DNA of 64,000 bases from Terriglobia bacterium (lineage in GTDB: Bacteria > Acidobacteriota > Terriglobia > 20CM-2-55-15): NCBI GenBank assembly GCA_963664115.2, contig CAXWPJ010000002.1, positions 736,001-800,000 of the forward strand, read 5' to 3'. The position numbers and the translations under genes are program-made. Below, piece by piece: positions 8,314 through 40,398 of this stretch. How positions within the stretch are numbered: position 1 is the stretch's first letter; each line of letters begins with the position of its first letter. The notes beneath the pieces were generated by a model. The model saw nothing but the letters and a program-made list of their open reading frames with translations. It had not been told where the DNA came from and searched no databases.

Positions 8314-8317
8314 AGCA

Positions 8318-8631: not shown

Positions 8632-8719
8632 AATTCTCAATGTTCGAGAAGATGATTTCTCAGGACTTGACCTCGAAAATCAGGGGACCGGCACCCGTTC
8701 CTTCAGTTCTTCAAACCAG
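8632..8719. repeat. Array junction copy 1: palindrome plus kinase C-terminal remnant
   Basis: aattctcaatgttcgagaagatgatttctcaggacttgacctcgaaaa followed by reverse WFEELKERVPVP*. Confidence 0.9.
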
Positions 8720-8842
8720 ACTTCATGAGTGCGGCTCACCCCGAATGATGAAAATAAGCATTTTCGCGCTCCCGATACTGCGGAAGAGGGCCCGAAACGC
8801 CTGGACTGATCCTAAGGGACTTACGCCATATTTTCGTAACAG
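8720..8842. repeat. 123-bp insert in kinase C-terminal remnant (copy A)
   Basis: Near-identical to 28551-28673; same insertion point, flanked by CAG. Confidence 0.85.
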
Positions 8843-8985
8843 TTCTGGACGAATTTGATCCCCTTGGATGAAATCGCTATACCCTGACCCCACTTTCCAT
8901 ACGAATGCGCTCTGATATCGACTATGCACTCATGACGCCACCATTTACTTCATTACGTCGGCAGTTGTGCCGGTATACTCCGCGC

Positions 8986-9798
8986 ATGATGAATCTCGCC
9001 CTCATTACCGTCTTCACCGCCCTGGCGATTCTCCTTTGCGCAGGATTCCTACACCTGCTTCCTCGTCTGGGCGGTTTCGGGCGCCGCATCTCCGAGTCAA
9101 TGTGCCGCGCCCCGATGCTCGACGTGCTGATCACCTACTTCGGCATAGCCCCACTCGCCGTCGGTCCCATCGTCGGAGGCTGGATCGGGCTGGCCGGCGG
9201 CATCTTCGGTCAGATCAGCGCGGTGCTGATTTGGTCCCTCCTGCACAGCGCGGCCAATCCCCGCGTGCGCCGCGGTCCTCGCATCCACAGGACACTCAAC
9301 CAGATCGTCGGCCCCTGGCGAAATTACACGGCCCTCTGGCTGACGGCGCTGATGGTGCCGATGTTCTGGACCGTGCGTATGATCGAGATCTTTCTCTATC
9401 CTTTGATCCGCGGTCTCGTGCGCTTCCCGAAGTACGACCAAGGCACTTGGGTCTGCGTATCGCGCCAGAAGTTCGACGGCCTCATCAGCCACGACCTGAT
9501 CTGGTGCCTTTACTGCGACTGGATGACCGGTGTCTGGTCGCTCGGCTCGGAGATACTGCGCAACGTCGAATCATTCTGGTGCCCCATCCGATTCTCCAGC
9601 CACGAGAAGTGCGCCAACTGCCAGGTCGACTTTCCCGACGTCGCCGGCGCATGGGTTTCCGCCGACGGAACGATGACCCAGGTGACCGAGGTCCTCAACC
9701 GCAAGTACGATGGCACAACCGATGGCGCCAACTCATGGTTCGGTCACCCGACCAGACTGACAGGCAACGGCGACCCCTCCACGAAACGGGAGTGCTGA
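8986..9798 (+). CDS. Hypothetical membrane protein with Cys-rich C-terminus (cargo)
   Basis: Hydrophobic helices, WCLYCDW, FWCPIR, CANC; start uncertain (ORF opens at 8905). Confidence 0.7.
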   Translation: MMNLALITVFTALAILLCAGFLHLLPRLGGFGRRISESMCRAPMLDVLITYFGIAPLAVGPIVGGWIGLAGGIFGQISAVLIWSLLHSAANPRVRRGPRIHRTLNQIVGPWRNYTALWLTALMVPMFWTVRMIEIFLYPLIRGLVRFPKYDQGTWVCVSRQKFDGLISHDLIWCLYCDWMTGVWSLGSEILRNVESFWCPIRFSSHEKCANCQVDFPDVAGAWVSADGTMTQVTEVLNRKYDGTTDGANSWFGHPTRLTGNGDPSTKREC

Positions 9799-10018
9799 CG
9801 CCAGGCCCATCATCGCAGACCCGCTCCCGTCTCAACTCCCCATCGACCTGCAGTTCCGCTCAATCATGAAGTCTGAAAACCTACTTTATCCATAGCTCCA
9901 CCATTGCGGCTTCACACCGGCCGCGCCTTTCAAATTCTGTTATCGAAATTGTCGCGGTAGAAACCGATCGGCAGGTCCTGCGACATTGTGCGCCGCCCCA
10001 CTTCCGATCAACACTAGA

Positions 10019-10101
10019 GATTTCTCAGGACTTGACCTCGAAAATCAGGGCACCGGCACCCGCTCGCGCAGCTCTTGGAACCAGTTCAGGACTATGTTGA
10101 T
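10019..10101. repeat. Array junction copy 2 (right arm plus C-terminal remnant)
   Basis: gatttctcaggacttgacctcgaaaatcagggcaccggcacc...; reverse INIVLNWFQELRERVPVP*. Confidence 0.85.
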
Positions 10102-11851: not shown

Positions 11852-13236
11852 GAGTTATAACCGAATCTGGTGTTTGAGGGATTGAATAAGAGCGGCGTAT
11901 CTGGTTGATTTGTTGTGACAAAACTTCAAAGCAACCATAGGAGATACGCCACTGTGAGCAAGAGTAACGTGAATGGACCGGAAGGTCGAGAAACGATTGA
12001 GGATCCAGTAACAGAACTACTACGAGTTGGGGCACAGCAACTGATCCAACGCGCAGTGGAAGCCGAATTGGCAGAGCTGCTATCCCAGCACGGTGGCCGG
12101 CGAACTGAGACAGGAAACGCCGGGGTGGTACGCAACGGTTATCTGCCGGAACGCGAACTGCAGACGGGATTGGGTCCGGTAACAGTCCAAATCCCGAAGG
12201 TCCGTGCCAAGACGGGCGAAGCTGTGACGTTCCGATCGGCCCTGGTACCACCGTACATTCGGAAGACGAAGTCGCTGGAAGCAGCGGTGCCGTGGTTGTA
12301 TTTGAAAGGCGTTTCCAGCGGCGAGATGGGTGAGGCCCTAAAAGTTCTTGTCGGTCCCCAGGCGCAGGGTCTGTCGGCGAGCACGGTATCGCGGTTGAAA
12401 CAGGTTTGGGGCGAACAGTACCGCCTCGGATGCGAGGAGCGTTTGGATGCAGATCGCTGGGTCTATGTCTGGGCCGACGGCATCTACAGCGGACTTCGGG
12501 CGGAACAAACCAAGTTGTGTGCATTGGTCGTGATCGGCGTGAATGAACGCGGAGAGAAGCGTTTCCTGGCGATCGAAGACGGTGTACGGGAATCGACACA
12601 GAGTTGGCGCGAGGTCTTGTTGAAGCTGAAGTCCCGTGGGATGAATGTTCCGAAGTTGGCCATCGGTGACGGTGCGATGGGGTTCTGGGCCGCACTGGAG
12701 GAAATCTATCCCGAGACACGTCAACAACGTTGCTGGATGCACAAAGTCATGAACGTCCTCAACTGCCTGCCCAAGTCGGTCCAGGCGAAGGCGAAACAGG
12801 CCCTGCACTCGATCTGGCAGGCCGAGACGAAGGCAGACGCCGAGAAGGCATTCGACTTGTTCATTGAAACCTATGAACCGAAGTATCCGAAAGCCACACT
12901 CTGCCTGCAGAAAGACAGAGAGGAACTGCTGGCCTTTTACGACTTTCCGGCCAAGCACTGGCAGAGCATCAGAACGACGAATCCCATTGAGTCGACCTTT
13001 GCCACCATTCGACACCGAACGAAGCGATCCAGAGGTTGCCTGACACGGGATGGCATGCTGCACATGATGTTCAAACTGGGCCAGTGCGCTGAGAACAATT
13101 GGCGACGATTACGAGGATTCGATGATCTGAGCAAGGTAATCATCGGAGTGAAATTCAACGATGGTGTCGAAGCGACACAAGTCGATCAGGCCGCCGCTTG
13201 AATCAATCTCCTAAACACCACTTTTGACAATAACTC
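11852..13236 (+). mobile_element. IS256-family insertion sequence with 9-bp TSD
   Basis: Inverted ends gagttat...tggtgttt; TSD acactgatg at 11843-11851 and 13237-13245. Confidence 0.92.
11954..13201 (+). CDS. IS256-family (mutator) transposase
   Basis: RNGY, YVWADG, IGDGAMGF, QRCWMH, IRTTNPIES motifs. Confidence 0.92.
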   Translation: MSKSNVNGPEGRETIEDPVTELLRVGAQQLIQRAVEAELAELLSQHGGRRTETGNAGVVRNGYLPERELQTGLGPVTVQIPKVRAKTGEAVTFRSALVPPYIRKTKSLEAAVPWLYLKGVSSGEMGEALKVLVGPQAQGLSASTVSRLKQVWGEQYRLGCEERLDADRWVYVWADGIYSGLRAEQTKLCALVVIGVNERGEKRFLAIEDGVRESTQSWREVLLKLKSRGMNVPKLAIGDGAMGFWAALEEIYPETRQQRCWMHKVMNVLNCLPKSVQAKAKQALHSIWQAETKADAEKAFDLFIETYEPKYPKATLCLQKDREELLAFYDFPAKHWQSIRTTNPIESTFATIRHRTKRSRGCLTRDGMLHMMFKLGQCAENNWRRLRGFDDLSKVIIGVKFNDGVEATQVDQAAA

Positions 13237-13959: not shown

Positions 13960-14204
13960 CATCCCATCCTTACCCAAGAGCAAGGCATCTCGTAATGGCC
14001 GAGTTGAGTTCTGGATTTCATTATTTAATGTGCACCGAAACGAGCCGTGAAAATCTCGGTAAAGAATACTAAGGGAGGAAGTTAGGTGCTATTAAATTCT
14101 CAAACATTAAATTCTAAAATCCTGACAAACGACCTTCTCGGACTGTTAGAAAAGGTCCTAAAAACGGGGTTCTCAAGGTCCGAGAAGATGATTTCTCGGG
14201 ACTT
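13960..14204. repeat. Degenerate kinase N-terminal remnant, promoter region and junction palindrome copy 3
   Basis: ctcgtaatggccgagttg near 13990; ttctcaaggtccgagaagatgatttctcgggactt at 14170-14204. Confidence 0.8.
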
Positions 14205-14231
14205 AAGAATGGTGAGATCACTGAGAGAGGC

Positions 14232-14405
14232 TTAAACGTCCCACAAGACGCACTTGTACCAGTCGGTCCGTATTTGCGTTTGGCCGGTGCCGTCTTTCCA
14301 GTATTCGTTTGTCGCGATGGAGAAATTCAGGATGGGTGTCCCGCTTTGGGTGTATCGCAGCTCGGCGTGATGTCCAACGTGTCCGGTCAGTGACACTTGG
14401 TTCAT
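14232..14405 (-). pseudogene. ssb: Truncated single-stranded DNA-binding protein (N-terminal 57 aa)
   Basis: MNQVSLTGHVGHHAELRYTQSGTPILNFSIATNEYWKDGTGQTQIRTDWYKCVLWDV*. Confidence 0.8.
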
Positions 14406-14451
14406 GTGTAGAACCCCCGTTTTAGATCCAATTTGTTATTCTGATTGCACT

Positions 14452-14643
14452 ATGACGAAAATTGAATTGATCCAAGATGCAATCGGGCAGCTCGAAACGG
14501 CATTGACCGAGCTGACCAATGCGAAGCAAACCGTCGACTACGACCCGGACAAAAACTTTACAGGGAACGTTGCGAACCGACTGAATGACGCCGCGATATT
14601 CATCAATGTCGCTCTCGCAGATATAGCGGAAGCCCGGAATTAA
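14452..14643 (+). CDS. Small hypothetical helical protein, possibly phage-derived
   Basis: 63 aa amphipathic ORF divergent from ssb fragment. Confidence 0.4.
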   Translation: MTKIELIQDAIGQLETALTELTNAKQTVDYDPDKNFTGNVANRLNDAAIFINVALADIAEARN

Positions 14644-15034
14644 AGCGGACCATATTCCTTTTAACCACCTGTGCAAAAAAGAGTTCGCAGGATACTCATT
14701 ATGCGACGTTCTCCGGTTCTTACTAAAGCCAGGTCCTTTCCGCGCCCCCGGCTCTTCTTCCGGGCCTATCGAGCCGGGTGGGGGTCAGCCATCTTGATCA
14801 GCCGCCTACCGCGCACGACGGCTTCGACAATCGGAGTAACGCGATTTTCCATCGCGTCCGCCGATAACCGTTACAGACCGAACAGAGCCGCAATCCGATA
14901 CGTTGCGCTACTTTTTTGCTGACATGGCGTCGGATCGAACCGACAAATGCGTGAGGGTGGTTTGCGTGGCTGGCTGGGAGCGTAATTTTGGGACATATTA
15001 ATGGGCCCGATTTTTAGAATTTTTTAGGAATTCC

Positions 15035-15324
15035 AATTCTCAATGTCCGCGAAGATGATTTATCAGGACTTGACCTCGAAAATCAGGGCACTGGCACCCG
15101 TTCCTTGAGTTCTTCAAACCTCTTCGAACCAGGTCTAGAGAGAGACGGTTACTGAATGTTCTGGTCGAGCGGTGCTCCGCTCTGAGAAAAGATGGTGGGG
15201 TTTGTTGGATGCCAGTTATCCGCTGCAAGGACGATACAGGACTTGACCTCGAAAATCAGGGACTGGCACCCGTTCCTTGAGTTCTTCAAACCTCTTCGAA
15301 CCAGGTCTAGAGAGAGACGGTTAC
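15035..15324. repeat. Array junction copies 4 and 5 (local direct duplication)
   Basis: 15064-15152 nearly identical to 15237-15324. Confidence 0.85.
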
Positions 15325-17616: not shown

Positions 17617-17879
17617 GAACTCTCTACCTCACTACTGTCGCTTGTAAACTGAAAAAGCTGGAGAAAGTCTATAGAACGAACGGGTTGGAAGCAACGATTG
17701 GAATCAGCAGGATTCTCAACGTCCGACAAGATGATCTATGAAAGGGGATGTCAAGAGAAACAGCTCCCCGATGGCCGGCCAGACGGACACTTTTGTCGTG
17801 ACAGCCAGCCCCTCTACCGTTATGTGAAGCCCTGGTTCCGGCAATCCGGAGCGAAATCGTACATCTTTAAGACGGTCGA

Positions 17880-18100
17880 TTCAGAAACTGAACAGCATAT
17901 GGGACGGCATGTGCCGACCATGGATCTATCTGAGCCTCGAAGGCTATCGCTGTTTCAGGTCGTGCGAGGGGGGATAGAGATTTAAAAGTGTCCTCTGGAC
18001 GTATCCAGGGACCACATCTTGTGCAGATCCTCACCCTCGATCCTCAGTTGTTCCGACTCCGTCTAACGACTCAGTACGGCTCTACCGGTCACGGATCGAA
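17880..18100 (-). ncRNA. Putative bridge/seek RNA of the IS1111 element (boundaries approximate)
   Basis: Two guide-hairpin-guide units: ACAAGATG/TAAATC match the target; ACAGCGAT/ATAGATC match the circle junction. Confidence 0.65.
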
Positions 18101-18105
18101 ACGGC

Positions 18106-19170
18106 TTATGTTGTCATCCAGCTCAGTTTCTTTGGATCGAACGATTCTCCTTTCTTCCAAAGCGTCAGCACCAGTGCGGCGATCTTACGGGCCAGAGTGA
18201 CCCGCGCCATTTCCTCCCGCATCCCACGCATCTGGAGACTCTCCAGATAAATCCGATACGGCTCGCTTTGTTTTCCCGATGCCGCGGCTGAGAAGAACAC
18301 CGACTTCAATCGCCGGTTGCAGTTCGCATTCAATCCGCGTGTGGCCACCGGTTTCCTCCGTCGCACCACACGTCCACTCTGCATCTCATACTCCGCGCTC
18401 ATGTGGGTCACCACACCCAGGCCACTGTAGCTCCAGAACTGCGGTGTCGTGCGGAATCGGTACGGCGTGTCCACGATGGCGACGATCTGTGCCGCCCGAA
18501 CCGGTCCCAGTTGTGGAATGGTCTCGAGCAGTTTCACCGCCTCATGGTGCCGGCCCTCCACTCGCACCGCTTTTCTGGATTGTTTCCGCAGCAACTGGAC
18601 CTGGTCCAGTTCCGCATACAACCATCGGGCGCGCTGCCTCATCCCCGGCTCGGTCAGCTTCTCCAACCACTGTTCGCGCTGACTCGGCCGATAGACTCCG
18701 TCCTTCGGTGTCGGGATCCCCCGTCCCCGGTATATCGCTTTGATCCGCGACATCACCCGTTGCGTGTCCAACTGGAACGTGTCATAGGCCTGCACCAGTT
18801 GCTTCAATTCTCGCGTCGCTTCATGGCCGTGATACACCGAGCGCAACAGTCCCACCCGCAACAGCTCGGCCAGCTTCCGCGCATCCGGCTTATCCCCCTT
18901 CGACCCTTCTTGCATCCACTTGTTCTGTCGCGGATCGCACACCACCACCTCGCTCACCCACGGCCGGATCACTTCCGATAACCAGCCCGCTTGCGTGGTC
19001 TCCTCCAACCCCACGTGCATCGGCCCACTCAATCCCTCCAGCAGCCGTGTGATACTCCCCGCCTCGGTTTCCACGATCGTTTCAAACACCAGTTTGCCGC
19101 TCCCGTCTCTCACCGCAACCACCGTCGTTGCCTGGTGCACATCCATACCCATATACTTGTCTTGTTTCAT
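18106..19170 (-). CDS. IS110-family DEDD transposase/recombinase
   Basis: MGMDVH, GLEET, KGDKPDA, TIPQLGP, YSGL, ARKIA motifs. Confidence 0.92.
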   Translation of the reverse strand: MKQDKYMGMDVHQATTVVAVRDGSGKLVFETIVETEAGSITRLLEGLSGPMHVGLEETTQAGWLSEVIRPWVSEVVVCDPRQNKWMQEGSKGDKPDARKLAELLRVGLLRSVYHGHEATRELKQLVQAYDTFQLDTQRVMSRIKAIYRGRGIPTPKDGVYRPSQREQWLEKLTEPGMRQRARWLYAELDQVQLLRKQSRKAVRVEGRHHEAVKLLETIPQLGPVRAAQIVAIVDTPYRFRTTPQFWSYSGLGVVTHMSAEYEMQSGRVVRRRKPVATRGLNANCNRRLKSVFFSAAASGKQSEPYRIYLESLQMRGMREEMARVTLARKIAALVLTLWKKGESFDPKKLSWMTT

Positions 19171-19588
19171 CTCGAACGCTCCTTTTCTGGGATCAACGCT
19201 GTATACGTTGATCAGGTTGTTGAGTGAGTCTTCTCTCAACAACCCCCAGTCTAGGGGCGTCCTTTCATACTGCGATTTATCAGGACTTGACCCGGCATCT
19301 CTGTCTCCGCCGACTTCCCCGAAGCCGACTTTTGGGTCGTTAATGCTGCCCATTCCTAAACGCTAGGCGACTACTCATTACCTATGCAGTGAAACACCAC
19401 CAAACCCCTTTGAAATTTCGTCGTTACAAAGCGGCCAGCCCTCAGAAAACCCCCTTGCCCTGCACCTTAGGCTTCCGATAATCTGGCTGCTACAATAACG
19501 GGAGAGTAACCTGCGCTTGCTCAGGTTGACCTAATCGGGCCGAGGGCGCGATCCTTTTCGAGAACCGCGAGAACCGGAGGATTTCATC

Positions 19589-21094: not shown

Positions 21095-21313
21095 GGTATT
21101 GCTCGGCACGCCGTTCTGGAGCAGGATGAGATCGACCGCCGACCCGGGTTTCTTTGGGTTTCAACTTGGGCAAAACCTCCTGCGGACGGCGATTGCCCCT
21201 GGGTGACGCCGTTTCGTTTACCGATCCACATGCAACGCCCCAGAAGTCGGCTTCTGGCGAGCAGCCCTAGCTTTAGAACGAGCGGATTGGAAGCAATGAT
21301 TTCAGTCGGCAGG

Positions 21314-21398
21314 TTTCTCAAGGTCCGGGAAGATGATTTCTCAGGACTTGACCTCGAAAATTAAGGCACCGGCACCCGTTCCTTCAGGTCTTCAAACG
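21314..21398. repeat. Array junction copy 7
   Basis: tttctcaaggtccgggaagatgatttctcaggacttgacctcgaaaa plus reverse FEDLKERVPVP*. Confidence 0.9.
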
Positions 21399-21554: not shown

Positions 21555-21789
21555 TCGAAACCATGGATTGCCGCTATGCTATGTTGGGATGATTTAAAGA
21601 AGCGAGTAATCTGGCTTCACGTTCAAATCGCGCTAAACGATCAGCGTCTCTCGCAAACTCTTCAGGGAGAGTCTTGATGGCAACTTCACGACCGAGCTTC
21701 GTATCCTTCGCACGCCACACTTCTCCCATTCCACCCTTGCCCAGGAGTGTGCTGATCTCGTAGTGACCGAGTTTGGTGCCGGGTTCCAT
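21555..21789 (-). pseudogene. Ser/Thr kinase N-terminal remnant (longest copy)
   Basis: [71 protein letters not shown], then frameshifted AIHGFE. Confidence 0.9.
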
Positions 21790-21861: not shown

Positions 21862-21965
21862 AATTCTCAACGTCCGACAAGATTTATCGGGACTTGACCT
21901 CGAAAATCAGGGAACCGGGACACGTTCCTTCAGTTCTTCAAACCAGTTTTGAACGATGTTGATCT
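21862..21965. repeat. Array junction copy 8
   Basis: aattctcaacgtccgacaagatttatcgggacttgacc plus reverse QINIVQNWFEELKERVPVP*. Confidence 0.9.
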
Positions 21966-22155
21966 GCCTCAATGGCTTGGCAGTGCCGTCCGGTGGCAAC
22001 GACGCGGGAAGTACAACCACCAGTTTTTGTCTCGCCCAACGTAACACTACATCGTATCCGCGACATTCCCGCCGTGCGTGTTGCCTCTCGGTATACCGCA
22101 AACCTCGCTTGTTTGACTTATCCGCCCGAGATGTCAAGTTATTCTTGAGCGGGCC

Positions 22156-27935: not shown

Positions 27936-27974
27936 AATCTCAATGTCCGAGAAGATGATTTCTCAGGACTTGAC
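27936..27974. repeat. Array junction palindrome copy 9 (no kinase remnants attached)
   Basis: aatctcaatgtccgagaagatgatttctcaggacttgac. Confidence 0.9.
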
Positions 27975-28031
27975 AGTCACTTTTCCCAGTAGCCGACTCG
28001 TTGGCGTCAGAACTAACGGCCTTCGAGCACC

Positions 28032-28690: not shown

Positions 28691-28775
28691 CCGGGACCGC
28701 CTCGCCCCACCGATGTCAGCTCTTTCAGCTGGAACAATCGTGATGAATTCTTCGCCGGCTGGGTGATGCCCACTT

Positions 28776-30338
28776 CTAACGAGCCGGATCACGGACTACG
28801 TTGCGCAGGTCCTCGTACGTTCCGACATCGCCATGAATGCCAACGATTGTTTGCACGTTCAAATTCAATGCCTCGATGCCTTCGAGGAGCTCGCGCGGCA
28901 ACTCGCCCGGCCGTATGCTCCCCCCCTCGCGAGGGCTGACATGGTCCGCCTCGATCAGAATGCGTTCTCCTGGAAGATAAATGATCTGGTAATCGTCCGC
29001 GTGCGATGTCGCATATGGGTAAATTTCAATTTGTCGGCTCCCGTCGGTCAGGATCTTCGGTTCCGTGATCCCTTCGACGACGGCTGCATCCCGGCTCTGT
29101 TCCAAACGCTCCGCCCGGATGGTGTGCGGTGCTCTGGCGATGCGCTCATAGTGTGCTGCACTGATCGCCGGCGCGACAATCGTTGCCCCCGCTTCCGTGT
29201 ATGTCCGTATGCCGCCTGAGTGATCGTTGTGGAAATGGGTTGGAATAACGTAGCGGATCGGCTTCGTTGGAAAGCGCTGTCTGATCGCCGCGAGAACGCT
29301 TTCTGAACGCTCTTCATAGAGCGGCGCCTCAACGACCACAAGATGGTCCTGAAACTCGATGAGCACGCTGTTGTGCGACGTTCCCCGGATATGAATGACG
29401 CCGTCGGCGAGCGGCACGAACTCCACCGGTATGTCCCTGCCAAAATCCAGGTAGCTGACATTCATCGCCAGACGGCGCAAGAGCCATTGCGAGGGGATCG
29501 GCTCTCCTTCGATGTCTTGACGCCGTAGGGCCTCAGGCACCAGGAACGTTTCGGGCGAGAGCTCAACATTGTGGCGCACGGACTGGAGGCGTTCGCTCTG
29601 CAGCAGTTGCCCGTTGATTTCATGTCGCAGGTCGAAAGGCACCATGATGCCATCCACAGACTGCCAGTCCGCGTAACGCAGGGTGTACCGGCTATCCCCG
29701 TAGATGGGGTCGTGTTCGAGGATGTCGACTTGTGTAAGGAGCTTAGTCCGGACATCCAGGTAGATTTGAAATTCCTCACCGTCGTTGTCAAAGCTCAGGA
29801 CGCGCTGTGGCAGCCCCTCCACTTCGGTATCGGGGAGCCGCGTCAGGCTCGCCCGTCCCAACGCCGTGAGCACGAGGGCATTGGCTGAACGCTGTTCTTC
29901 CCGTATGCGGCTCGCCAGTCGACCCGGATGTAAACGCGTCGTTTGAGAAGTTCCGCCTTCGATGCTTTCTTGCAGCAGCCCGTCGTCTCCATCAATAATT
30001 TCAATATAGCGAACAGGCACCTCCCTTGGATAAATCGTCCTGCCGTTCCACTCCAAGCGGAGTCGTGGGCTTGCAATCTCCCGAGTCAGCGTGTAGCGAA
30101 AATCTGCCACACGTCGAGCCTGGCCACCCGGACGCAATGCCTGCTCGGGCTCAAATTGCTGTCCCGAGCCTTCCAGCACTTGGTTTATCAGGGCGTGCAG
30201 TGCCTCTACTCCACCCATCGCATGTGCGGTCTCTTCCAATATCGCGGTGGCTTCCCCGTTTTGTGCCAGTGCCGGAATATTTGCTACTGAAAGAACCAAA
30301 AGTAGCAGGCTGAATCGAATCAATTTGCGCGTCCACAT
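28776..30338 (-). CDS. Secreted MBL-fold metallo-hydrolase (cargo); ORF open upstream into kinase start at 30452
   Basis: THFHNDHSGG, SHADD, GIHG; signal peptide from MWTRK. Confidence 0.85.
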   Translation of the reverse strand: MWTRKLIRFSLLLLVLSVANIPALAQNGEATAILEETAHAMGGVEALHALINQVLEGSGQQFEPEQALRPGGQARRVADFRYTLTREIASPRLRLEWNGRTIYPREVPVRYIEIIDGDDGLLQESIEGGTSQTTRLHPGRLASRIREEQRSANALVLTALGRASLTRLPDTEVEGLPQRVLSFDNDGEEFQIYLDVRTKLLTQVDILEHDPIYGDSRYTLRYADWQSVDGIMVPFDLRHEINGQLLQSERLQSVRHNVELSPETFLVPEALRRQDIEGEPIPSQWLLRRLAMNVSYLDFGRDIPVEFVPLADGVIHIRGTSHNSVLIEFQDHLVVVEAPLYEERSESVLAAIRQRFPTKPIRYVIPTHFHNDHSGGIRTYTEAGATIVAPAISAAHYERIARAPHTIRAERLEQSRDAAVVEGITEPKILTDGSRQIEIYPYATSHADDYQIIYLPGERILIEADHVSPREGGSIRPGELPRELLEGIEALNLNVQTIVGIHGDVGTYEDLRNVVRDPAR

Positions 30339-30399
30339 AGCGTGTGCTCCCGGCCGCTGTTCGACCTGTGGAAGGCCAAGGAGAAACCGACCTCCGCCT

Positions 30400-30598
30400 C
30401 TGCCCATGGCGGAAAGGATCTCGTAGTGGCCGAGTTTGGTGCCAGATTCCATGTTTAAAGTGTGCCGAAACGAAACGTGAAAAAGTTGGATAAATCTAAC
30501 TACAGGTGGGGGTTATAAGCAAGGAAGTTGTGAGCCCGCGTATCACGGTTAATTCTCAACGTCCGCGAAGATGATTTGTCAGGACTTGAACTCAAGAA
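30400..30598. repeat. Kinase N-terminal remnant, promoter and junction palindrome copy 10
   Basis: [20 protein letters not shown]; TTGCTT-18-TAGATT; aattctcaacgtccgcgaagatgatttgtcaggacttga. Confidence 0.88.
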
Positions 30599-31182: not shown

Positions 31183-31317
31183 CCTTTCGGCGACATGTCG
31201 GCAGCATCGCATCGCGCCGCCTCGATTGCGACTCGCCCCACCGCCTCGACTAAGTTGGCGGTTATTGGGGGATGACTCGACGGACTCGGTTGTTTCTGCC
31301 CGTGCCGACTACGAACC

Positions 31318-31797: not shown

Positions 31798-31915
31798 CAA
31801 AACCTCCTCGAAAGGCTTTACGCCGCTTGGATGTTTGGACACGCTGGGTTCTTCTGTACTGCGGCGGGACGGGCAAGTCAAAGGAAAAGCAGCGGACTGA
31901 AGCACGCACGCTCGT

Positions 31916-31975
31916 CTAGGGCACCGGCACCCGTTCCTTCAGTTCTTCAAACCAGTTCAGGACGATGTTGATTCC
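31916..31975 (-). repeat. Kinase C-terminal remnant
   Basis: GINIVLNWFEELKERVPVP*. Confidence 0.9.
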
Positions 31976-32214
31976 CTGTTGCGCGGTTTGTTGCACGAGT
32001 GATCCGGCTTTACGAGCAAGTTGCATCGAGTCAATGCATCGGAGACTGCGTTCGACGTTGGATCGTATGGATTGATAGTGATGTCCGATATCGAATGCAC
32101 TATAGTGATCGAAAATGCGGGAGTGCGCGCAACCGGCTTTGCCGCGTCGCCGGATGTGGAATGCTCTCACAATGAAGAGCCGGGCCTGCGTTCACGATTT
32201 TAGGAGTTGAAACA

Positions 32215-33210
32215 ATGCAACGAATCACAAGGAATCCATATTTGATTTTTCCTTTGGGCGCTGCTGCTTCAATGGCAGGCCTGGTGATCTTGTCTCTCCT
32301 GAGAGACGATCCTCTCAGTGTCAATATTCCTTTTGTCGCCTTTCTAGCTTTGGTGCCGCTAGTGGCTGGGTGGTACTCCTTCAGCACAAGGTCACGCGCC
32401 AAACGAGGCTGGTGGATACTGCATTGGCTCGGGACTACGGTTCTCGGCGTTTTGGCAGCTGGCATCGTATTGTTTGGCTCATTGATCTTGATTCCACCTG
32501 GACCTTACGAGGCATACAACTACGCTCACTTTAACTTTGCGGCATATGACTCGGTATCAGGACAACGTGTGAGCGTAGGAGGGGAGGCGCTGGATGCGAC
32601 TCTCTATACGCTGGAGGAAGACAATGTGAAGCTTTCCGACCTCTGGGCGGAGAGGCCGATCGTTCTGGAATTCGGAAGTCTCACCTGACCGGTTTTCTGT
32701 GCAAAGGTTCCCGTGATGGAACCTCTAGTGAGAGCTTACGAAGGCAAGGCTGATTTTTACGTGTTGTATACGCGGGAGGCTCACCCCGGAGAAAACTATC
32801 CAGCACACGAGAGTTTTTCCGACAAAATGAACGATGCGCGGGATCTCAAACGGTTTGAACCAGTTGAGCGGACAATTTTGGTTGACGACCTGGAAGGAAC
32901 CATGCACACAGACTATGGCGCCAGGCCCAATTCTGTGTATGTGATTGGGAAGGATGGGATCATCCTGTTTCGGGCGGACTGGAACGATCCGGAGGCGGTG
33001 CAAGTCCAATTGGATCGACTCTTGCAGAACGATGGCAACGCTTCCGGTTTAGAACCGGTCGATATAACAGACGATTTTACGGGTATCGATGGTGGTGCTG
33101 TGAACACAGCTATGAGAGTCATGAAGCGTGCGGGATATACTTCGATTGTGGATTTCGCGGTCTCTTCCATGAATTTGTTTCAAGGTCGGATTGCTGCACA
33201 GCGCAATTAA
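32215..33210 (+). CDS. Membrane-anchored deiodinase-like (thioredoxin-fold) selenoprotein
   Basis: RPIVLEFGSLT-TGA-PVF...YTREAHP in one frame; hairpin AGGTTCC-cgtgat-GGAACCT 16 nt after TGA. Confidence 0.85.
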
Positions 33211-33214
33211 CTCG

Positions 33215-33364
33215 CTTCACGTTGAAATCGAGTTAAACGGTCAGCGTCTTGATGGCAACTTCACGCCCAAGTTTAGTATCCTTCGCACGCCACACCTCTC
33301 CCATTCCTCCCTTACCGAGGAGTGTGCTGATCTCGTAATGACCGAGTTTGGTGCCGGGCTGCAT
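33215..33364 (-). pseudogene. Kinase N-terminal remnant
   Basis: [41 protein letters not shown]. Confidence 0.88.
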
Positions 33365-33375
33365 TCGCCGTGCTC

Positions 33376-35376
33376 CTATTTAAGGACCGCGCTGACTTCG
33401 GCTTGCACGACGAGGCGGTCTGCGTCGTCCTGGAGAAGGTATCGTCCGCGCACCAATCGGGCGGCGGCTGCGGACACTTTCGCGACGTAGTTCTCGTGGC
33501 TCCCGTAGCGTTCTTCGAGCGACGGTCTCGGATCACCGACTGCGAGTCGCTCTGCCCTGGTCCTGGCGAATGGAATGTAGCCACCGGCATTGGTCCGAAT
33601 ATGGCCCTTGTAGAACCCACTGGCAGTCGTATTCCAGCCCGTGTACGTTCCCAGAGGAACCTGGTGGAGCACGCTGGCCACTCCACTGACCTCGTTCCCA
33701 TCGGCGTCGACCGTTGGCACTACTGTGGGAAGCACTTGGCGAATCGGAGGAGGCTGGATCGTGATGACTCCCGAGAGGTCGTTGTAATCGAACTGCGTTC
33801 CGAAGTCATATTCGTAAAGTGGGTTGAGAATTCCGTCCGGTATCGGCACACCTGGGATCGTTGGAAATCCAAGCGCGGCCTGTGTAGGTAACGTCAGTTC
33901 TCCTCGATCGAGTCGCGGATATTGACTCGGTGGAGGGAGCGTACCCTGCACGACCCAATCCACTAACGCAGTCTGCAACGCACGCAATGTGTCGCTGGAA
34001 GGATTCGGGTTCGGTGCCAGGTCGCAGCAGGCGTTAGGCTCTGGGTTTGGATCGAATCCGCCGGGTCCACCCCCATGCCTCACTCCCGGGAAGTAATACC
34101 GTCGGACATTCGATGGCAAGGGAATATCGCGGTCAGCCCGAGTGCCCACCAAGTTCGGAGACGCACGCAAGTTGTAGAACTCCGCCGAGCCGAACGTTTC
34201 CACGATCTTGGGACAGGTTTCCGTAGCCTCGCACCGATCGAGCAATCCCGCCGAGGCATGGCCTCGCGCTTCGTCGGCATAATTGGCCCACCAGACAACG
34301 CCATCACTCCCGGCTTCGTACATCGCAGCCGCCCCACCGGGAGCTGCGAATCGGATATTCATTGCCAGGAGGCGAGCGGCACGTTCGGGGTTGCTGCCGT
34401 CGAAAACAATTCGCCCAGCCTCGTCCTGATTGAAGCCCAGGTGAATGAAGCTTCGAAGGAAGTTCCCGGACTGCGAGTTGCCCTGGCTTACCGTCCAGTT
34501 GATCCTTCCGCGCAGAACATTCGGAGCCCCCGCATCGTCCTGGGTTCCGTAGCGCAGATAGGAATTCAGATCTCGCGTTGCAGCAAATCCGATTCCGTGG
34601 ACCTTGGGATCCTTGGCAGTGTAGACAAGCTCGTACAGAAAGGCGGGATTGAATCCGCCCTGGATACAGATCTTTCTCGGATCGGGTGTGCCTGGAAAAG
34701 GGCTCCGACTGCAATCGGCAAAGGCCCACTCTGTGCTGTATAGAGGGATGACAGCACCATGTTCTGAGGCTCGGCGGGTCAGGGTGGCTTGACCCGTATC
34801 GAGCGTGACCGGATCGGCGGTCCCCACAACCCGACCGCGAATTATTGGCAAGGTCGTCGTGTTCGGAGGCATGTCGCTGAACCTGGCGAGCACGGGCCCC
34901 GTGATACTGGATCCATCGGAGTTCCTGGCTATCGGAACAAAAAGCGTCTCCCTACCATCGGCGGGCTCGAGGTCTCCCTGCCACCCACTGGCGACAAGGA
35001 CGTGGCCTTGATTTCGAGCATCGGCGAGGAACCCACCACCGGTCAGATTGATCCGGCCGCGGTTCGGGACGAAATAGAGAAGCGCTCCACTGGCTTTCGC
35101 CATGTCGGTAGGTTTGATGATGGTGAACGTCGCCACGTATTCCACCATCCCTCGCCCGTTGCGTGGAGCAAATTCGAGATCGGTAATGATGGCGTTCAGT
35201 GGGTGCCTGGGGTCCACTTCGCCATAGGCGTGGCCTGTGAGTTTTTCGTATCCATCATCGCCTCTGAGCGTCTCCGTGTGTTCTACTACGAGCCGCGTGA
35301 TCTCAGCCGGGGTGGGATTCGCCACCGTGAGGATTGCCACAGCCACGAGCGTGGCCCTGAAGAGTCGAACCTGCAT
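33376..35376 (-). CDS. Secreted alpha/beta-hydrolase-domain protein (cargo)
   Basis: Signal peptide, GNSQSG nucleophile-elbow-like motif, [12 protein letters not shown]-terminus. Confidence 0.85.
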
Positions 35377-35399
35377 GCGTTACCTCCTTGATTTCCTGA

Positions 35400-35620
35400 G
35401 CGGGCCCAGGAATTCGTAGTGGCCGAGTTTGGTGCCGGAATCCATGTTTAAAGTGTGTCGCTGAAAGGTCTCTGAAAAACTCGGTAAACGATACTAGAGG
35501 TGGGTGTTAGAGGCAATCAAAAGGTCAGGCCCTGATAAACGACATTGTCAGACATTGAAAAACCTCAGTAATTTGCCCAATTCTCAACGTCCGACAAGAT
35601 GATTTGTCAGGACTTGACGT
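35400..35620. repeat. Kinase N-terminal remnant, promoter and junction palindrome copy 11
   Basis: [16 protein letters not shown]; TTGCCT-17-TATCGT; ttctcaacgtccgacaagatgatttgtcaggacttgac. Confidence 0.88.
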
Positions 35621-35654
35621 CGACTTTTCGTTCCAGATTCGGCGACCACACCTT

Positions 35655-36275
35655 TCGTTAACGCGGCCGCCGTCGGGTGCAGCCACTTGTTAGGCGGCCC
35701 GTTCGTCAAGCCGCGAAGTGGTATTTGAGACATTGAGTCTCGGACTCGACCATTCCGGCCAGCATGTCAGACGCTGTTCCAGGCGCGAGCCGTACCTCAC
35801 GGGTAGCCGAAAAGGCTGTGTGCGCCCCTCCAATCCGATTCAGCTCGAGGATAGCGTCGTATTCGAGAACGCCAAGAGCCGGTTCCAGAGCGCGATAGCG
35901 AAGGCGATAACGACCTGCCCCTTCTTCCGCGGTTCGTTCGTAGATCTCCTCTTTCAGCGTGGTGCCTGCCACCTCAAACTGAAATGTTGACGGCACGTTG
36001 TCCGGTCCGCCGCTCAACCACTTGAAATCGCTTGTCAGTCCCGGCAAACCAACGGCAACGAGGCGCTCCCAGTCCCACAACAGTGCCCAGACTTCGGCTG
36101 GAGCGTTGTCGAACGTCGCTGTAGCAACGATCCTGTATTGGTCGGGCCCGGTTACAGTGGTCTCAACATTGACGGCGCCGCGTTCCGATACTGGTTCGCC
36201 CGCGTTACGCTCGTTCGCCATACGAAAGCCTCCCCGTTCCCGTTTGTCTGCCTAACATAGTAGTAGGCTGCGGTC
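35655..36275 (-). mobile_element. Integron-type gene cassette with partial attC sites
   Basis: Minus strand: GTTAGGC (36256-36250) before the gene; GCCTAACaagtggctgcacccgac (35695 downwards) after the stop. Confidence 0.65.
35706..36221 (-). CDS. SRPBCC/polyketide cyclase-like protein
   Basis: APAEVWALLWDW, LKEEI, LRYR motifs. Confidence 0.7.
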   Translation of the reverse strand: MANERNAGEPVSERGAVNVETTVTGPDQYRIVATATFDNAPAEVWALLWDWERLVAVGLPGLTSDFKWLSGGPDNVPSTFQFEVAGTTLKEEIYERTAEEGAGRYRLRYRALEPALGVLEYDAILELNRIGGAHTAFSATREVRLAPGTASDMLAGMVESETQCLKYHFAA

Positions 36276-36455
36276 AGACACAGTTAACTCCCCCCGTGCC
36301 TTGCGATCTTTTAAACACGACGCCACCTGCAGCTCCAAAGCCTGTGTTGTGATTTTTCTGTGTCTTATGCTGAGGCAATGCCGCGGAAGAACTGGAATTA
36401 GGCTGCAATGCGATCACCTGGACGTATAGTCGGCTTATCGGAAAGTAGCAGTTTC

Positions 36456-36560
36456 AATTCTCAACGTCCGAGAAGATGATTTCTCAGGACTTGACCTCGC
36501 AAATCAAGGCACTGGCACGCGTTCCTTCAGTTCTTCAAACCAGTTGAGGACGATGTTGAT
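36456..36560. repeat. Array junction copy 12
   Basis: aattctcaacgtccgagaagatgatttctcaggacttgacc plus reverse INIVLNWFEELKERVPVP*. Confidence 0.92.
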
Positions 36561-36597
36561 TGGACGTTCCGAAACTAAAGGGATGGTTTTTGCGAGG

Positions 36598-38112
36598 TCA
36601 GTTCACGGGGCGGGCGGGAACGTTCTGGAGTTCGGAGACACCCCGGTCGAACAGGTTCCGGATTCTGGAACTGGATCGAAACTCTCTAAGGATCGCGCCC
36701 TGCCGACCTCGGTAAGTTTCGTCGATCACATAAGCCAGAACAGTTGCCATCACCGCGCCTTCCTCGGTGTCGGTCGCATCGAAACGTCGCGCGAAACCCC
36801 GCAGAACGCCCTCGAACTCTGAGTCCTCCCACTGCTCGAGGGTCGCGTCGATCCTGACGAACTCCTCAAGGACGCCAACGTACCGGAGACTGGGCGGGTG
36901 ATGCCAGAACGAAACGTCGGGACCAAACTCCTCGACATAAAACGGAAGATAGAGGTTGGCGTTTGCGGGAACCCGGCGGATCAGCGCGGGATTGTACCGC
37001 CGCACCTCATCGACGGAGAGCCCGGTCTCCCGGGTGACTTCTTCAAGACTGATCGCCCTCGGGACACGCATGGCATAGACCGGAACCTGAGCAATCTCCG
37101 TCTTGAGGTTCTCCACGTTGAACGTGTTGCCAAACACCATCTCCGCATACAGGGAGGAGCGGGGACCGTAGGTCCGGAAGATTTCGCGATAACGGCGCAG
37201 CGAAACCCGGCGCAGTTCGACGGCGAAAGCCGCGCCCAGGAAATACTGCTCCCGGACGTCCCGGCCACCCAACCGCGAGCCGTTGATTACCGTGCGTCCG
37301 ACGTTTGCGGCCCCGGCATGATGCTCCGAAAGCGCCGGAATAAATGATCCATATTTGGTCGCCAGGGTCACCAGGTAGGCGGCACAGTACGGTGCCTGCG
37401 TTGTCTGGTTGTACCCTTCGATGACATGGGAGGCATGCCGCTTGAGCCGATTCCAGTTTCGATCGAGCCACTGGCAGAAACCCAAGGCTCTGGCCTCCGA
37501 ACGGACCTTGCCGTTCAGTCCCGATTCGAGGACGGCCTGGGCCAGACCGATCTCGGCGGGGACGGCAAAGCGTTCGTAGATAGCGCTCCACTCGTCGAGA
37601 AAAGCACCGTAGCGCCGGGCGTTTGGGAGCAAGAAGTTCCCCCGGGTAGAGTTGTGGACGACGGGTCCGACACGGGGCTCGAGAAGCGAGGCAACCAGGT
37701 CGCGGCGCCGGTTCTGGCGCGACGGCAGAGACTCGCCTTCAAGGAGGGACTCGAACGCAGGATCTTTCCAAAGGCCCTCACGAGCCCAGTTTCCCCGGGT
37801 GGGAAACGAGACCAGGAGCCTTCCGTCCACCGCGCTACCAAAAGCGACATGCCCGTCCGGGATCGTGAAGACATGCTGCCAGAACGGATAGGACGGCCGG
37901 AACGCCTCTATCGCCGTAAGATCGCTCTCCAGGCGGGCCCGGGAATACTCGTACGCCGGATGGTCAAAGCGGGGCGGGGCGGGTTCGAGACCAACAGCAG
38001 GAGCGGAAGTCTCCGCGGCCACCTCCATCAGAACCACGTCTCTATGGCCAATATGATCGGACGCCGTCAGAATGACGAGCGTGGCGAGGACGAGGATGAT
38101 GGACTGTTTCAT
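36598..38112 (-). CDS. Lytic transglycosylase (SLT) with LysM-like domain (cargo)
   Basis: AVLESGL...ARALGFCQW SLT motif; LSVDEVRRYNPAL. Confidence 0.7.
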   Translation of the reverse strand: MKQSIILVLATLVILTASDHIGHRDVVLMEVAAETSAPAVGLEPAPPRFDHPAYEYSRARLESDLTAIEAFRPSYPFWQHVFTIPDGHVAFGSAVDGRLLVSFPTRGNWAREGLWKDPAFESLLEGESLPSRQNRRRDLVASLLEPRVGPVVHNSTRGNFLLPNARRYGAFLDEWSAIYERFAVPAEIGLAQAVLESGLNGKVRSEARALGFCQWLDRNWNRLKRHASHVIEGYNQTTQAPYCAAYLVTLATKYGSFIPALSEHHAGAANVGRTVINGSRLGGRDVREQYFLGAAFAVELRRVSLRRYREIFRTYGPRSSLYAEMVFGNTFNVENLKTEIAQVPVYAMRVPRAISLEEVTRETGLSVDEVRRYNPALIRRVPANANLYLPFYVEEFGPDVSFWHHPPSLRYVGVLEEFVRIDATLEQWEDSEFEGVLRGFARRFDATDTEEGAVMATVLAYVIDETYRGRQGAILREFRSSSRIRNLFDRGVSELQNVPARPVN

Positions 38113-38707
38113 CGAACGGCGGCACCTTGAACTCCACCATCGCCGTGGATGCGTTCCCAGCTCTTTCCCATTTTCGACCCTCGCTTCGGGGCCTGCCACA
38201 GATACAGTTGAATTAGGACACCGTTCCCGAAGTGCAGTGGGAATCGGCGGTTCCGTGGACCTCGAGAATTCTCCGACAACGGAGTATATCTGGACGCCAA
38301 ATCACACGCAACAACTGAGCGTGGCCCTCAACGTCCCGAATAGTTCATGCGGACCTATCCCCTCAGACATCTGTCAATGCGAAAGTCGAGGGAATTCTTG
38401 TTGAAACCCGGATTGGAACGGCGCCGGAATAGCGAGACAACCGGGCAGTCCGACACCTGAGCCCTAAAATGGTAACGAAAGTGTTCAGTATCCTCTCGGG
38501 CAATTCTGCTTTGCAGATGTGAGTTCTGTTTCACTTGTTACCGGAGTCTTTCAGTCTGGACGTATGGCCTTCTGTACGTTCGAGGGTGAGGTTCCACGCG
38601 ATCTGGCAGCGGCCGGGTTGGGCACCAGATTCCATCATTAGTGCCTCTGCCCGCTCGTTCTGAGCTTCAGAACCAGGGCGTTCGGATCCAGTGCTGAACG
38701 GCGTTCG

Positions 38708-39502
38708 CTATGGATCCAGGCCGCCCGCAGGGTTCCGGATGGTCTGGTTGAAATCCTGCTCGTCGATCGGCGCGAAAATGACCTCGTAGATTTCGGCATA
38801 GGGCGAATCCGGCCCCTGCAGCTTGAACGTTCTCGTATCGCTCGTCCAGGGTTGCGCAAAGATACCGGGGTCGTTGAACGTCATGGTGAATTCGATGGTC
38901 TCGCTGTCCACTCGCCGCCAGCGTTCCTCGAGGCGCAAGGCGGGGCTGGCCGGCGTGCCCCACTCGTCAAGCCAGGCTCGGGAGTCCAGGCCGACGGTTT
39001 CGACCACGAACGTGTCGCCTTCCCAACGCCCAATGGAGTGTCCGTACCACCACGGATCCGGATTCTCGGGCAAATCCCGTCCGTCCGTCCAGATGATTCG
39101 CCATGTGTGATTCCACTCGAAGATTTGTACGACTTTGTCCTCGAACTGAAATGTTTCATGCGGTCTGTTGTATTCCAGCAAGCGCGCCAGACCAACGGGA
39201 TTCGCGCCTCCGAGCGGATCGTTCCCAAACGCTGGGGGTGCGCGTCTTGGCCCTTTTCCCGGCTTGTTTTCGTTGAACGCGGCCAGCCCCTGCGGCGTCC
39301 ATGGCGGTTCCTGGTTGCTCCATTCCGTCAGGCGGATCCCCTCGTCCACCAGGGCGCCGCCTCCGCCTGTTCCGAACATCCATACGCCGGTGAGGTCCTG
39401 CTTATCGAATCCTTGCTGCCCCCCCTGGGCCATGGCCCCAAGCGAAAGGAAACCCAGGGCGAACGCCAACAATATGATTAAACTGATTCCACGATTCTGC
39501 AT
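38708..39502 (-). CDS. Secreted hypothetical protein, partner of DUF6152-like gene
   Basis: DLTGVW, GHSIGRWEGDTFVVET, DPGIFAQPW. Confidence 0.75.
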   Translation of the reverse strand: MQNRGISLIILLAFALGFLSLGAMAQGGQQGFDKQDLTGVWMFGTGGGGALVDEGIRLTEWSNQEPPWTPQGLAAFNENKPGKGPRRAPPAFGNDPLGGANPVGLARLLEYNRPHETFQFEDKVVQIFEWNHTWRIIWTDGRDLPENPDPWWYGHSIGRWEGDTFVVETVGLDSRAWLDEWGTPASPALRLEERWRRVDSETIEFTMTFNDPGIFAQPWTSDTRTFKLQGPDSPYAEIYEVIFAPIDEQDFNQTIRNPAGGLDP

Positions 39503-39530
39503 CTGAAACTCCACGTTGTTGAGACCAGTC

Positions 39531-39920
39531 TTACTCGATCGGCAAGAGTTCCTCGCCGTTCACAAACACGGACTCCCGCCAGTCGATCTCCCCAATGGGC
39601 GAGCCGGCCCTAGATGGATACATGTAAAGTCTGACCTCGTCGCCCAGTTCAAAAATGTCTTGGGCATACCCCCGCCTGGCGAACATGCCCGGGCTGAGAG
39701 TCTCCGCGCCCCAATTCACCACTTTTCCATCCGCGCCGGTCACATCGAAGAAGAGCCGAGCGTGTGGATTGGCCCAAACCCACTCGGTCACGGTTCCTTC
39801 CAGCTCGATGGGATTGTCGCGGTCATAGGATATCGCCGTGCCGTGGTGCGCGAACACCGGCCCGGAAACCACAAGAAAGCCCACGAGTAAGGCAAGGCAT
39901 GTTCGGTCCGTCACTTTCAT
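39531..39920 (-). CDS. DUF6152-like exported protein
   Basis: Signal peptide ending AHH, GTVTEWVWANPH. Confidence 0.75.
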   Translation of the reverse strand: MKVTDRTCLALLVGFLVVSGPVFAHHGTAISYDRDNPIELEGTVTEWVWANPHARLFFDVTGADGKVVNWGAETLSPGMFARRGYAQDIFELGDEVRLYMYPSRAGSPIGEIDWRESVFVNGEELLPIE

Positions 39921-40094
39921 GTGAACTCTCCTAAATAAATGCTAGTTGTAAAATAGATACTTGCCTCTTGTTGGTGAGGGACCGATACGACATCCGCGCC
40001 TCGGCCTGTGGCCGCGCGCGGGTTGACATAACACCCATACGACGACATTGACAGCGCTGCCATAGCCGTCGGCCGCTGCTTATATCGCTTATCC

Positions 40095-40398
40095 GTAGCT
40101 TGGCTTCACGTTCAAACCACGCGAGTCGATCCGCATCCTTGGCAAACTCTTCAGGAAGCGTCTTGATGGCGACTTCGCGTCCGAGTTTCGTATCTCGCGC
40201 ACGCCACACTTCCCCCATGCCTCCTTTTCCAAGGAGCGTTGAGATCTCGTAGTGGCCGAGTTTGGTGCCGGATTCCATAATTACGGTCTGTCAGAACAGT
40301 GTATAGAAAGCTGGGGGCAGTCTATAGAAGGAGTGGGATAGCAGGCAATGAATTCTCAAGGTCCGACAAGATGATTTCTCAGGACTTGAACTCGAACA
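40095..40398. repeat. Kinase N-terminal remnant, promoter and junction palindrome copy 13
   Basis: [29 protein letters not shown]...FEREAKL; 40279-40370 closely resembles 21790-21880. Confidence 0.9.

Follow-up and report, generated by a model that had tools for sequence, protein, structure and literature searches.

We analysed a 64,000-nucleotide stretch of a Terriglobia bacterium genome (contig CAXWPJ010000002.1, positions 736,001 to 800,000; hereafter the window), in which a palindrome of two 14-bp inverted arms around a 6-bp spacer recurs among remnants of Ser/Thr kinase genes. An initial annotation had listed this 14-6-14 palindrome at 13 places and taken it for the crossover site of a tyrosine recombinase. 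All 13 positions indeed carry the motif on the plus strand, with the 34-bp core beginning 3-5 bases past each of them (Table 1). The copy at 27936 lacks any kinase-derived flank, as had been described, and the copy split between 17712 and 19274 is interrupted by an IS110-family insertion sequence (IS). The two copies described as halves fared differently: that at 10019 is a right arm only, joined to the right-end remnant of an IS91-type element, and the motif at 15237 belongs to a full variant (type II-like) site. In the copy at 21862 the spacer is 3 bp long, one GAT being gone. Copies absent from the earlier list were found in inverted orientation with another spacer (14115-14148 and 35525-35558) and with the spacer GCCGAC (21232-21265 and 36415-36448). 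No recombinase gene lies within the array of the window.

In order to determine copy numbers, we scanned the genome of the window (G000; 4.89 Mb in 12 contigs, C1-C12). A whole-genome profile scan revealed 160 full sites, 58 left halves and 41 right halves. Scanning with two spacer classes (score at least 14) gave 205 sites, of which 162 belong to class B (spacer GATGAT) and 43 to class A (spacer (T/G)GTCGT); the reversed genome gave no match to the class B model and two to the class A model. Several near-identical duplications of 5-8 kb, in part located at contig ends, are possibly assembly overlaps that could slightly inflate these counts (C2:1-8357 and C2:158976-167331; C6 and C11; C5 and the end of C9). 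When up to two mismatches were allowed, the pattern was present in 8 of 61 genomes, with 122 copies in G000, 81 in G002, 36 in G003, 8 in G001 and 1-3 in each of four genomes of a second genus, and its backwards control matched in none of the 61. A looser pattern matched nine of the 301 genomes examined in the class. In a collection scan, 18 of the 19 loci shown were titled as Terriglobia metagenome-assembled genomes (MAGs) and one as a Dehalococcoidia MAG; the latter contig (L059, 2.8 kb) has one class A-like site, reflecting transfer or mis-binning. Viral contigs searched for the palindrome gave no match. Across two genera, the 34 bp are far better conserved than their flanks. A type II variant family (spacer NGCGAC), which retains the right-arm core and also flanks kinases, was found in 13 of the 61 genomes, with two copies in G000 and 11 in G004, a genome in which the strict pattern detected no type I sites. 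A full-text literature search, with most subscription papers, supplements and ISfinder/TnCentral outside its reach, found no description of such a site or system.

The sites flank genes for Ser/Thr kinase-PD40 proteins of ~890 amino acids, or their remnants, and this family is expanded across the group (27 of 35 genomes). Kinase promoter DNA lies behind the right arm of 32/43 class A sites, with the start codon typically 113 bp from the site start, and the kinase 3' end lies behind the right arm of 78/162 class B sites, typically at 46 bp; kinase flanks were seen in 3/410 and 1/410 control windows. The kinase promoter is on the left of 37 class B sites, and 64 of the 162 have no kinase flank. 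Only 8 open frames retain both kinase motifs, compared with about 200 kinase fragments, and most copies are stubs of 12-100 codons around unrelated cargo. A different long palindromic repeat was noticed between tandem kinase genes of relatives (L142, L145 and L151, in G021, G013 and G007, respectively).

The two spacer classes follow an orientation rule. Among neighbours less than 8 kb apart, directly repeated sites were of the same class in 94/94 pairs (90 BB, 4 AA, no AB), whereas inverted neighbours paired an A with a B site in 45/49. Such a rule is predicted by spacer-matched recombination, as like spacers can then only excise or insert DNA, so that arrays stay polarised. Indeed, the 26 arrays of at least three sites, which hold 168 sites over 408 kb, are mostly polarised, with a few mixed in direction. 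A and B sites face each other in 25 cases, 18 of them at 23-25 bp and five at 114 bp. Cargo genes lie on either strand (45 versus 33), and contig skews were too mixed to show any replication-strand polarity of the arrays.

Duplicated DNA tends to end at the sites. Among low-copy duplications (at least 92% identity and 200 bp, within 3 kb of sites; those with more than two partners dropped as IS), 23 of 109 ends fell on a site in both copies, where about two were expected, and recent duplications of 99% identity also end on sites. A cassette of 1323 bp extends from site to site at both C2:264301-265623 and C6:43767-45089, with different neighbours. Modules of the window likewise recur elsewhere, 14173-15040 at C9 and the cargo at 28671-30467 in G002 with 97.8% identity.

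A candidate enzyme is P0001 (G000:C5:52192-53139), a 316-aa orphan, single-gene tyrosine recombinase of an Acidobacteria-enriched family. Its gene is flanked by A sites 108 bp upstream and 110 bp downstream, each with its left arm facing the gene. P0001 has the full catalytic set (R164, K191, H261, R264, H287 and Y296), reached no NCBIfam family cut-off, and has a predicted structure (pLDDT 70) whose best PDB matches are Cre/Tre (TM 0.41), with about 19% identity to Cre. At least 7,703 homologues were recorded at E<=1e-60 among 8,000 scored; the family is present in 38/301 genomes of the class and 6/401 of the phylum. In G007, G017 and G404, a family gene or its remnant is adjoined, by eye, by a type II site in the same orientation.

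Comparison of near-identical family members in different contexts, in a set of 105 loci of the family, showed that the match ends at the outer edge of a 6-bp spacer after a 14-bp arm, usually at both gene ends. Identity in these autonomous relatives thus does stop at the spacer edge: 33 of 89 breakpoint windows fell within two bases of it, and most element ends lie no more than 500 bp from the recombinase gene. The P0001 family forms one-gene, IS-like elements with clade-specific 14+6 ends (L158-L260, in relatives and metagenome contigs). We then compared 68 element ends, picked by inner arm and spacer without the outer arm, with the arm model of G000. Their outer, target-side 14 bases fitted the model with z=13.0 and the inner arm with z=10.4, in contrast to z=-0.3 for the next 14 bases, and TTGA was in register in 15/68 ends compared with 1/68. 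By eye, the upstream spacers of the closest homologues end in CGT or GGT (A-like), and several downstream ones in GAC or GAT (B-like). Inner arm bases were seen to differ between family copies that are otherwise 95-98% identical. A site-like, type II-like stretch in codons 287-297 of the family (catalytic His to Tyr) was set aside, as the amino acids explain it (5.8 compared with 5.6 when recoded).

The orientation rule, the duplication ends, the site-to-site cassette and the 14+6 ends on relatives' elements make a tyrosine-recombinase-type crossover site, as initially annotated, a well-supported reading of the palindrome, with the crossover itself not pinned to the spacer. The 14-6-14 site marks the joints of gene cassettes in the 26 chromosomal arrays, and we consider it probable that it is the crossover site of a P0001-family recombinase. 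In such a mechanism, each 14-bp arm would bind one subunit of a Cre-like, P0001-type homotetramer and only matching spacers would recombine. Cassettes would be excised or inserted, but not inverted, by B x B recombination, and A x A combined with B x B recombination would swap the block lying between an A site and a B site. Historically, element ends may have come to flank a kinase gene, foreign DNA may have replaced the kinase interior, and the loss of many A ends may have left B-to-B cassettes. The weakest part is the supposition that a Holliday junction, before it is resolved, moves along the near-identical arms; this would account for arms that are not passed on together with their flanks.

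That last point belongs to several observations that weigh against this reading. Duplication ends lie at the sites, but the arms are not linked to their own flanks: position 4 was identical in 15/32 pairs sharing a left flank (background 0.38), and the two copies of the 1323-bp cassette differ at 4/28 inner-arm bases versus 3 in about 1255 interior bases. A clean crossover in the spacer, with each arm inherited with its flank, would not have predicted this, and the crossover in G000 therefore cannot be pinned to the spacer. No empty site with two right arms was found in G000 or in the loci scanned, and synteny at the right edge of the window array did not reveal a clean one either. Over 21500-41450, contigs assembled from four public runs break at repeats, so that their joints cannot show circles, and depth steps between cassettes are only a hint. 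No P0001-family genes were found in G002 (81 sites, 97% complete), G003 (36 sites, 95% complete), G004 and G029, which fits the loss of an autonomous element and equally well a take-over by XerCD. The ends of the family elsewhere differ in sequence, and the de novo motif from their breakpoints showed no significant match to the G000 profile (p of about 0.1, with a best offset other than expected). For the closest homologues, enrichment of the arms-only G000 profile was seen upstream (z=4.9, n=15) but not downstream (z=1.7, n=17); distant homologues scored alike in both orientations. In addition, the same arm model gives the host XerC arm a score of 5.2, and the z-scores of the 68 ends come from related sequences and from end patterns hand-written from breakpoint motifs.

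Some mobile elements single out the site as a target. Two IS110-family elements lie at the spacer in 7/7 and 7/8 copies and an IS30-like element in 7/7, whereas at most 2 of 57 IS256-type and 3 of 75 IS1380-type ends, from elements very abundant in the genome, lie at a site. Both of the latter types are also present in the window (11852-13236 and 6457-8317, respectively), where the IS256 copy interrupts an alpha/beta-hydrolase gene whose G002 counterpart is intact. IS91-type elements carrying a tyrosine recombinase (G000 C1, C2, C3, C10 and C12; L027, L080, L082, L091, L096 and L141; window 9824-10021) have 16 of 18 distinct left junctions, judged by eye, at the boundary between spacer and right arm, and the last bases of their right ends, before the right arm of the target, are CGT or GAT. 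Because these right ends share their last bases with the target spacer, the junctions suggest recombinase-directed insertion at 14-6-14 sites, unlike typical IS91. The IS91-type elements of G001, G017 and G046 are found in weaker, degenerate targets, with spacers mostly ending in GT, so that these elements look like users of the site. A 13-base pattern for IS91 ends was too unspecific to be used, and no guide-like match was established in the non-coding ends of the IS110 elements. A further repeated element end is joined to the B-site spacer at C12:17026, 20163 and 564481. Homing of IS elements on pdif sites (10.1101/2022.12.17.520857) and targeting of attC sites by IS1111/IS110 elements (PMC11187229) are reported in the available portions of these two papers.

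Table 1 Sites, kinase remnants and other features in the window (coordinates of the 64-kb stretch; ORF, open reading frame).
Position	Strand	Feature	Basis
8321..8533	-	kinase shell joining the first ~50 to the last ~28 codons of a Ser/Thr kinase-PD40 gene	tblastn
8637..8670	+	class B site, spacer GATGAT; kinase promoter/5' remnant left, kinase 3' tail right	
8683..8718	-	kinase 3' tail, 12 codons; stop at the fixed 46 bp from site start	
9824..10021	+	right-end remnant of tyrosine-recombinase-carrying IS91-type element, in place of left arm	86% over 201 bp to C3 element
10022..10035	+	right arm only	
14115..14148	-	class A site, spacer GGTCGT; 24 bp from the next B site, which it faces head-to-head; right arm backed by kinase promoter	
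14173..14206	+	class B site; start of 867-bp module also at G000:C9 with other neighbours	
14682..14709	-	separate dif-like sequence within 867-bp module; keeps host XerC arm and spacer, with degenerate XerD arm	
15040..15073	+	class B site, kinase 3' tail to right	
15213..15246	+	full variant (type II-like) site	
17716..17735	+	left arm with spacer, from class B site split by IS110	
17736..19273	-	IS110-family element, 1538 bp; 7/7 genome copies at this spacer	Pfam
19274..19290	+	GAT and right arm of split site	
21232..21265	-	variant site, spacer GCCGAC, facing next B site	
21318..21351	+	class B site	
21577..21789	-	kinase 5' remnant, 71 codons	Pfam
21867..21897	+	class B site, 3-bp spacer (one GAT lost)	
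21910..22029	-	kinase 3' remnant	
27940..27973	+	class B site, no kinase-derived flank	
28776..30452	-	cargo: metallo-beta-lactamase-fold ORF whose first ~20 codons are those of the kinase; G002 has a 97.8% copy	
30556..30589	+	class B site, kinase promoter to left	
35392..35445	-	kinase 5' remnant, start codon 113 bp from class A site	
35525..35558	-	class A site, spacer TGTCGT; 25 bp from the next B site, which it faces head-to-head	
35584..35617	+	class B site (listed initially at 35579)	
36415..36448	-	variant site, spacer GCCGAC, 12 bp from next B site	
36461..36494	+	class B site matching the consensus exactly, with kinase 3' tail (36507-36566)	
40087..40278	-	kinase 5' remnant, 64 codons	
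40356..40389	+	class B site, final one of array	
40399..41349	-	partial kinase-PD40 ORF (PD40 part) at array edge	

Past the partial kinase-PD40 frame at the array edge, the window continues into a TRAP-transporter block common to G001, G002 and G004.

The palindrome can also be drawn as a hairpin with one unpaired base per arm, and folds as such (-7.5 kcal/mol, z of about -2.2 to -2.7, one strand). The initial annotation had likened the unpaired bases to the extrahelical bases of attC, and had seen a compensatory GACAA/TTGTC change in the copy at 35579. The pairing is present in that copy, but it is not compensatory. Among GATGAT sites, the right arm has G in 4/31 cases with C on the left and in 17/85 with G on the left (chi-square p=0.32), and the variable pair is complementary in only 50/118. 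As the two positions are independent, the change is best put down to chance, and the alignment of genomic copies that had been proposed as a check shows no covariation at this pair. The left bulged base can be C, T or G. Aligned without gaps, the arms agree at 10/14 positions (TCAA, C, G, A, AA), 144 full sites with a 6-bp spacer consist of two inverted arms around an asymmetric spacer, and type II variants often lose the fold while retaining the arm consensus. The arms are therefore better read as two 14-bp protein sites than as a bulged hairpin. A coding or read-through role, suggested by variable positions three apart, was dropped on inspection, as common variants and inverted A sites do not keep the frame. 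The A/B doublets fold weakly (z -1 to -2.6), and a CTX-like pairing of A with B, apparent by eye from 8/10 concordant cases, came to 9/25 concordant arms in 25 doublets, versus 6.8 expected (p=0.2).

XerCD, which the initial annotation had named as the enzyme to try, emerged as a rival rather than as the best candidate. Under this explanation, which we regard as rather unlikely, the palindromes would be chromosomal pdif-like sites worked by host XerC/XerD (for background on Xer recombination, see the accessible sections of PMC5357621), with the left arm binding XerC, the right arm a degenerate XerD site as in some integrative mobile elements exploiting Xer (IMEX), and P0001 a passenger or earlier user. 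G000 has 27 tyrosine-recombinase matches and also three serine resolvases, and XerC and XerD are the only tyrosine recombinases common to G000, G002 and G003 among those examined (10/27 matches in G002 and 10/12 in G003). A separate canonical dif was identified in 20 of the 61 genomes, nearly always as a single copy, and comparison with it cuts both ways: the left arm of the site is one base from the natural XerC arm of the dif of G056, but the conserved XerD arm of dif differs from the right arm at at least 4/11 bases and scores -0.3 on the arm model. The dyad moreover reaches 14 bp (TCAA/TTGA), past the 11-bp Xer arms, and its outer part is absent at dif. Spacers have to match in pdif modules as well, and these modules alternate in orientation (PMC13141974, available text); in G000, 49 inverted stand against 94 direct neighbour pairs. 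Most relatives bearing XerCD are without a copy of the palindrome, which matches in only 8 of the 61 genomes. Besides its single canonical dif, G000 has three dif-like copies with the XerC arm intact and the XerD arm degenerate, one of them in a mobile module of the window (dif-like positions: window 14682-14709; regions of C2:108118, C2:111514 and C9:952909).

The hairpin and the IS91-type junctions at the boundary between spacer and right arm, with right ends in CGT or GAT, would also suit a site that acts as a folded single strand in the manner of attC. The bulged bases would then be recognition marks for the recombinase of the IS91-type elements, which is related to integron integrases; the accessible text of 10.1101/542381 places such recombinases together with IntI. 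The lack of covariation, the frequent loss of the fold in type II variants and the degenerate targets in G001, G017 and G046 argue against an attC-like site, as does the absence of any IS91-associated recombinase from G003 at E<=1e-60 in the presence of 36 sites, and we judge this explanation quite improbable. An IS91-associated recombinase was likewise rejected as the main enzyme, being absent from G003 and present in G004, which is without type I sites by the strict pattern. The one IntI-like gene of G000 (C9:714590-715873) has attC-like repeats downstream that are unrelated to the palindrome and no palindrome site within 2.5 kb, and was discarded as the enzyme for want of linkage to the sites. 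Improbable, too, is that the sites are dead ends of old elements and the arrays are kinase tandem repeats in decay, reordered by IS activity and by ordinary homologous recombination between 40-bp repeats. The scarcity of frames with both kinase motifs, the absence of the enzyme from several site-rich assemblies and the unlinked arms, which fit crossovers anywhere in the repeat, are all consistent with such decay. Yet conservation of the 34 bp far exceeds that of the flanks across two genera, the arms differ so often that identity is unbroken over only about 10 bp, the 99% duplications ending on sites are recent, and copies are still selected as IS targets. Finally, a transcript-end RNA hairpin or a repetitive extragenic palindromic (REP)-like repeat of the kinase genes would account for foldable B sites at a fixed distance behind kinase stops, but not for A sites upstream of the promoter in the opposite orientation or for the 64 B sites without a kinase flank. 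No U tract follows the site, covariation is lacking, an Rfam search of window positions 8000-42000 gave no match, and of the two Y1/RAYT (REP-associated tyrosine transposase)-like genes in G000, one with a site nearby, neither matched in the relatives' site loci examined; these genes were rejected as candidates. The explanation as a whole appears highly improbable.

Taken further, the P0001 reading leads to a distinctly tentative proposal: an undescribed class of one-gene tyrosine-recombinase transposons in Acidobacteria, with 14+6 inverted ends and thousands of homologues, whose ends may have been domesticated in one lineage into a genome-wide, two-spacer cassette exchange. This exchange would have spread Ser/Thr kinase genes, with kinase shells capturing and shuffling cargo over about 8% of the chromosome, and would have become a shared landing pad for IS110, IS30 and IS91-type elements. 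If true, it would offer a concrete mechanism for the large kinase-PD40 expansions of the group, identify a substrate for more than 7,700 unassigned recombinases belonging to one family and suggest a purpose for the recombinase on some IS91 elements. A compact Cre-like candidate with defined sites and natural diversity of target arms may also serve as a tool. The Solibacter genome paper reports kinase and integrase paralogues and, in the text available, describes no such site (PMC3174227), and a term search of a recombinase classification gave nothing on Acidobacteria in its accessible part (10.1101/542381).

Natural cassette systems are known to be worked by IntI, in integrons, or by host XerCD, in dif modules. 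If our proposal holds, a small dedicated recombinase with two orthogonal spacers and about 200 chromosomal sites would constitute a third route. In Cre/lox with heterospecific spacers, a single recombinase acts on palindromic arms and the identity of the spacer sets the partners, allowing cassette exchange. The present system resembles Cre/lox in the best structural matches of the P0001 model, and differs from it in being natural and genome-wide, with a 6-bp spacer and low sequence identity of the recombinase to Cre.

Acinetobacter dif modules use pdif sites and XerCD and include chromosomal dif-module islands (PMC13141974 and PMC12907356, as far as accessible), and share with our sites the two arms around a 6-bp spacer flanking cargo, the matching spacers, inverted and directly repeated (fused) modules, arrays and IS homing. 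In contrast to dif, with its 11-bp XerC and XerD arms, the sites described here have 14-bp arms with an outer TCAA/TTGA dyad and no host XerD arm. They also number about 200 on one chromosome, fall into two main spacer classes, are mostly direct repeats, have a candidate dedicated recombinase and carry their cassettes in kinase shells. Like integron arrays (attC and IntI, or clusters of attC sites lacking integron integrases, CALIN), the arrays are polarised, with one palindromic site per gene, and are targeted by the IS1111/IS110 group (PMC11187229, parts available). Unlike integrons, the sites are 34 bp long and show no covariation, cargo lies on either strand, and the IntI-like gene has no site nearby. 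An R-box consensus, found in attC, is missing from the palindrome. Finally, SEs (strand-biased circularizing integrative elements) and Tn554 have imperfect inverted ends of 13-19 bp and a 6-bp spacer that travels with the element (PMC10214605, available sections). P0001-family elements likewise have inverted ends and carry a 6-bp spacer, but whereas SE/Tn554 need three or four genes, two of them for recombinases (as stated in the same sections), P0001-family elements have a single gene of 316 aa, and their two ends keep separate, conserved spacers.

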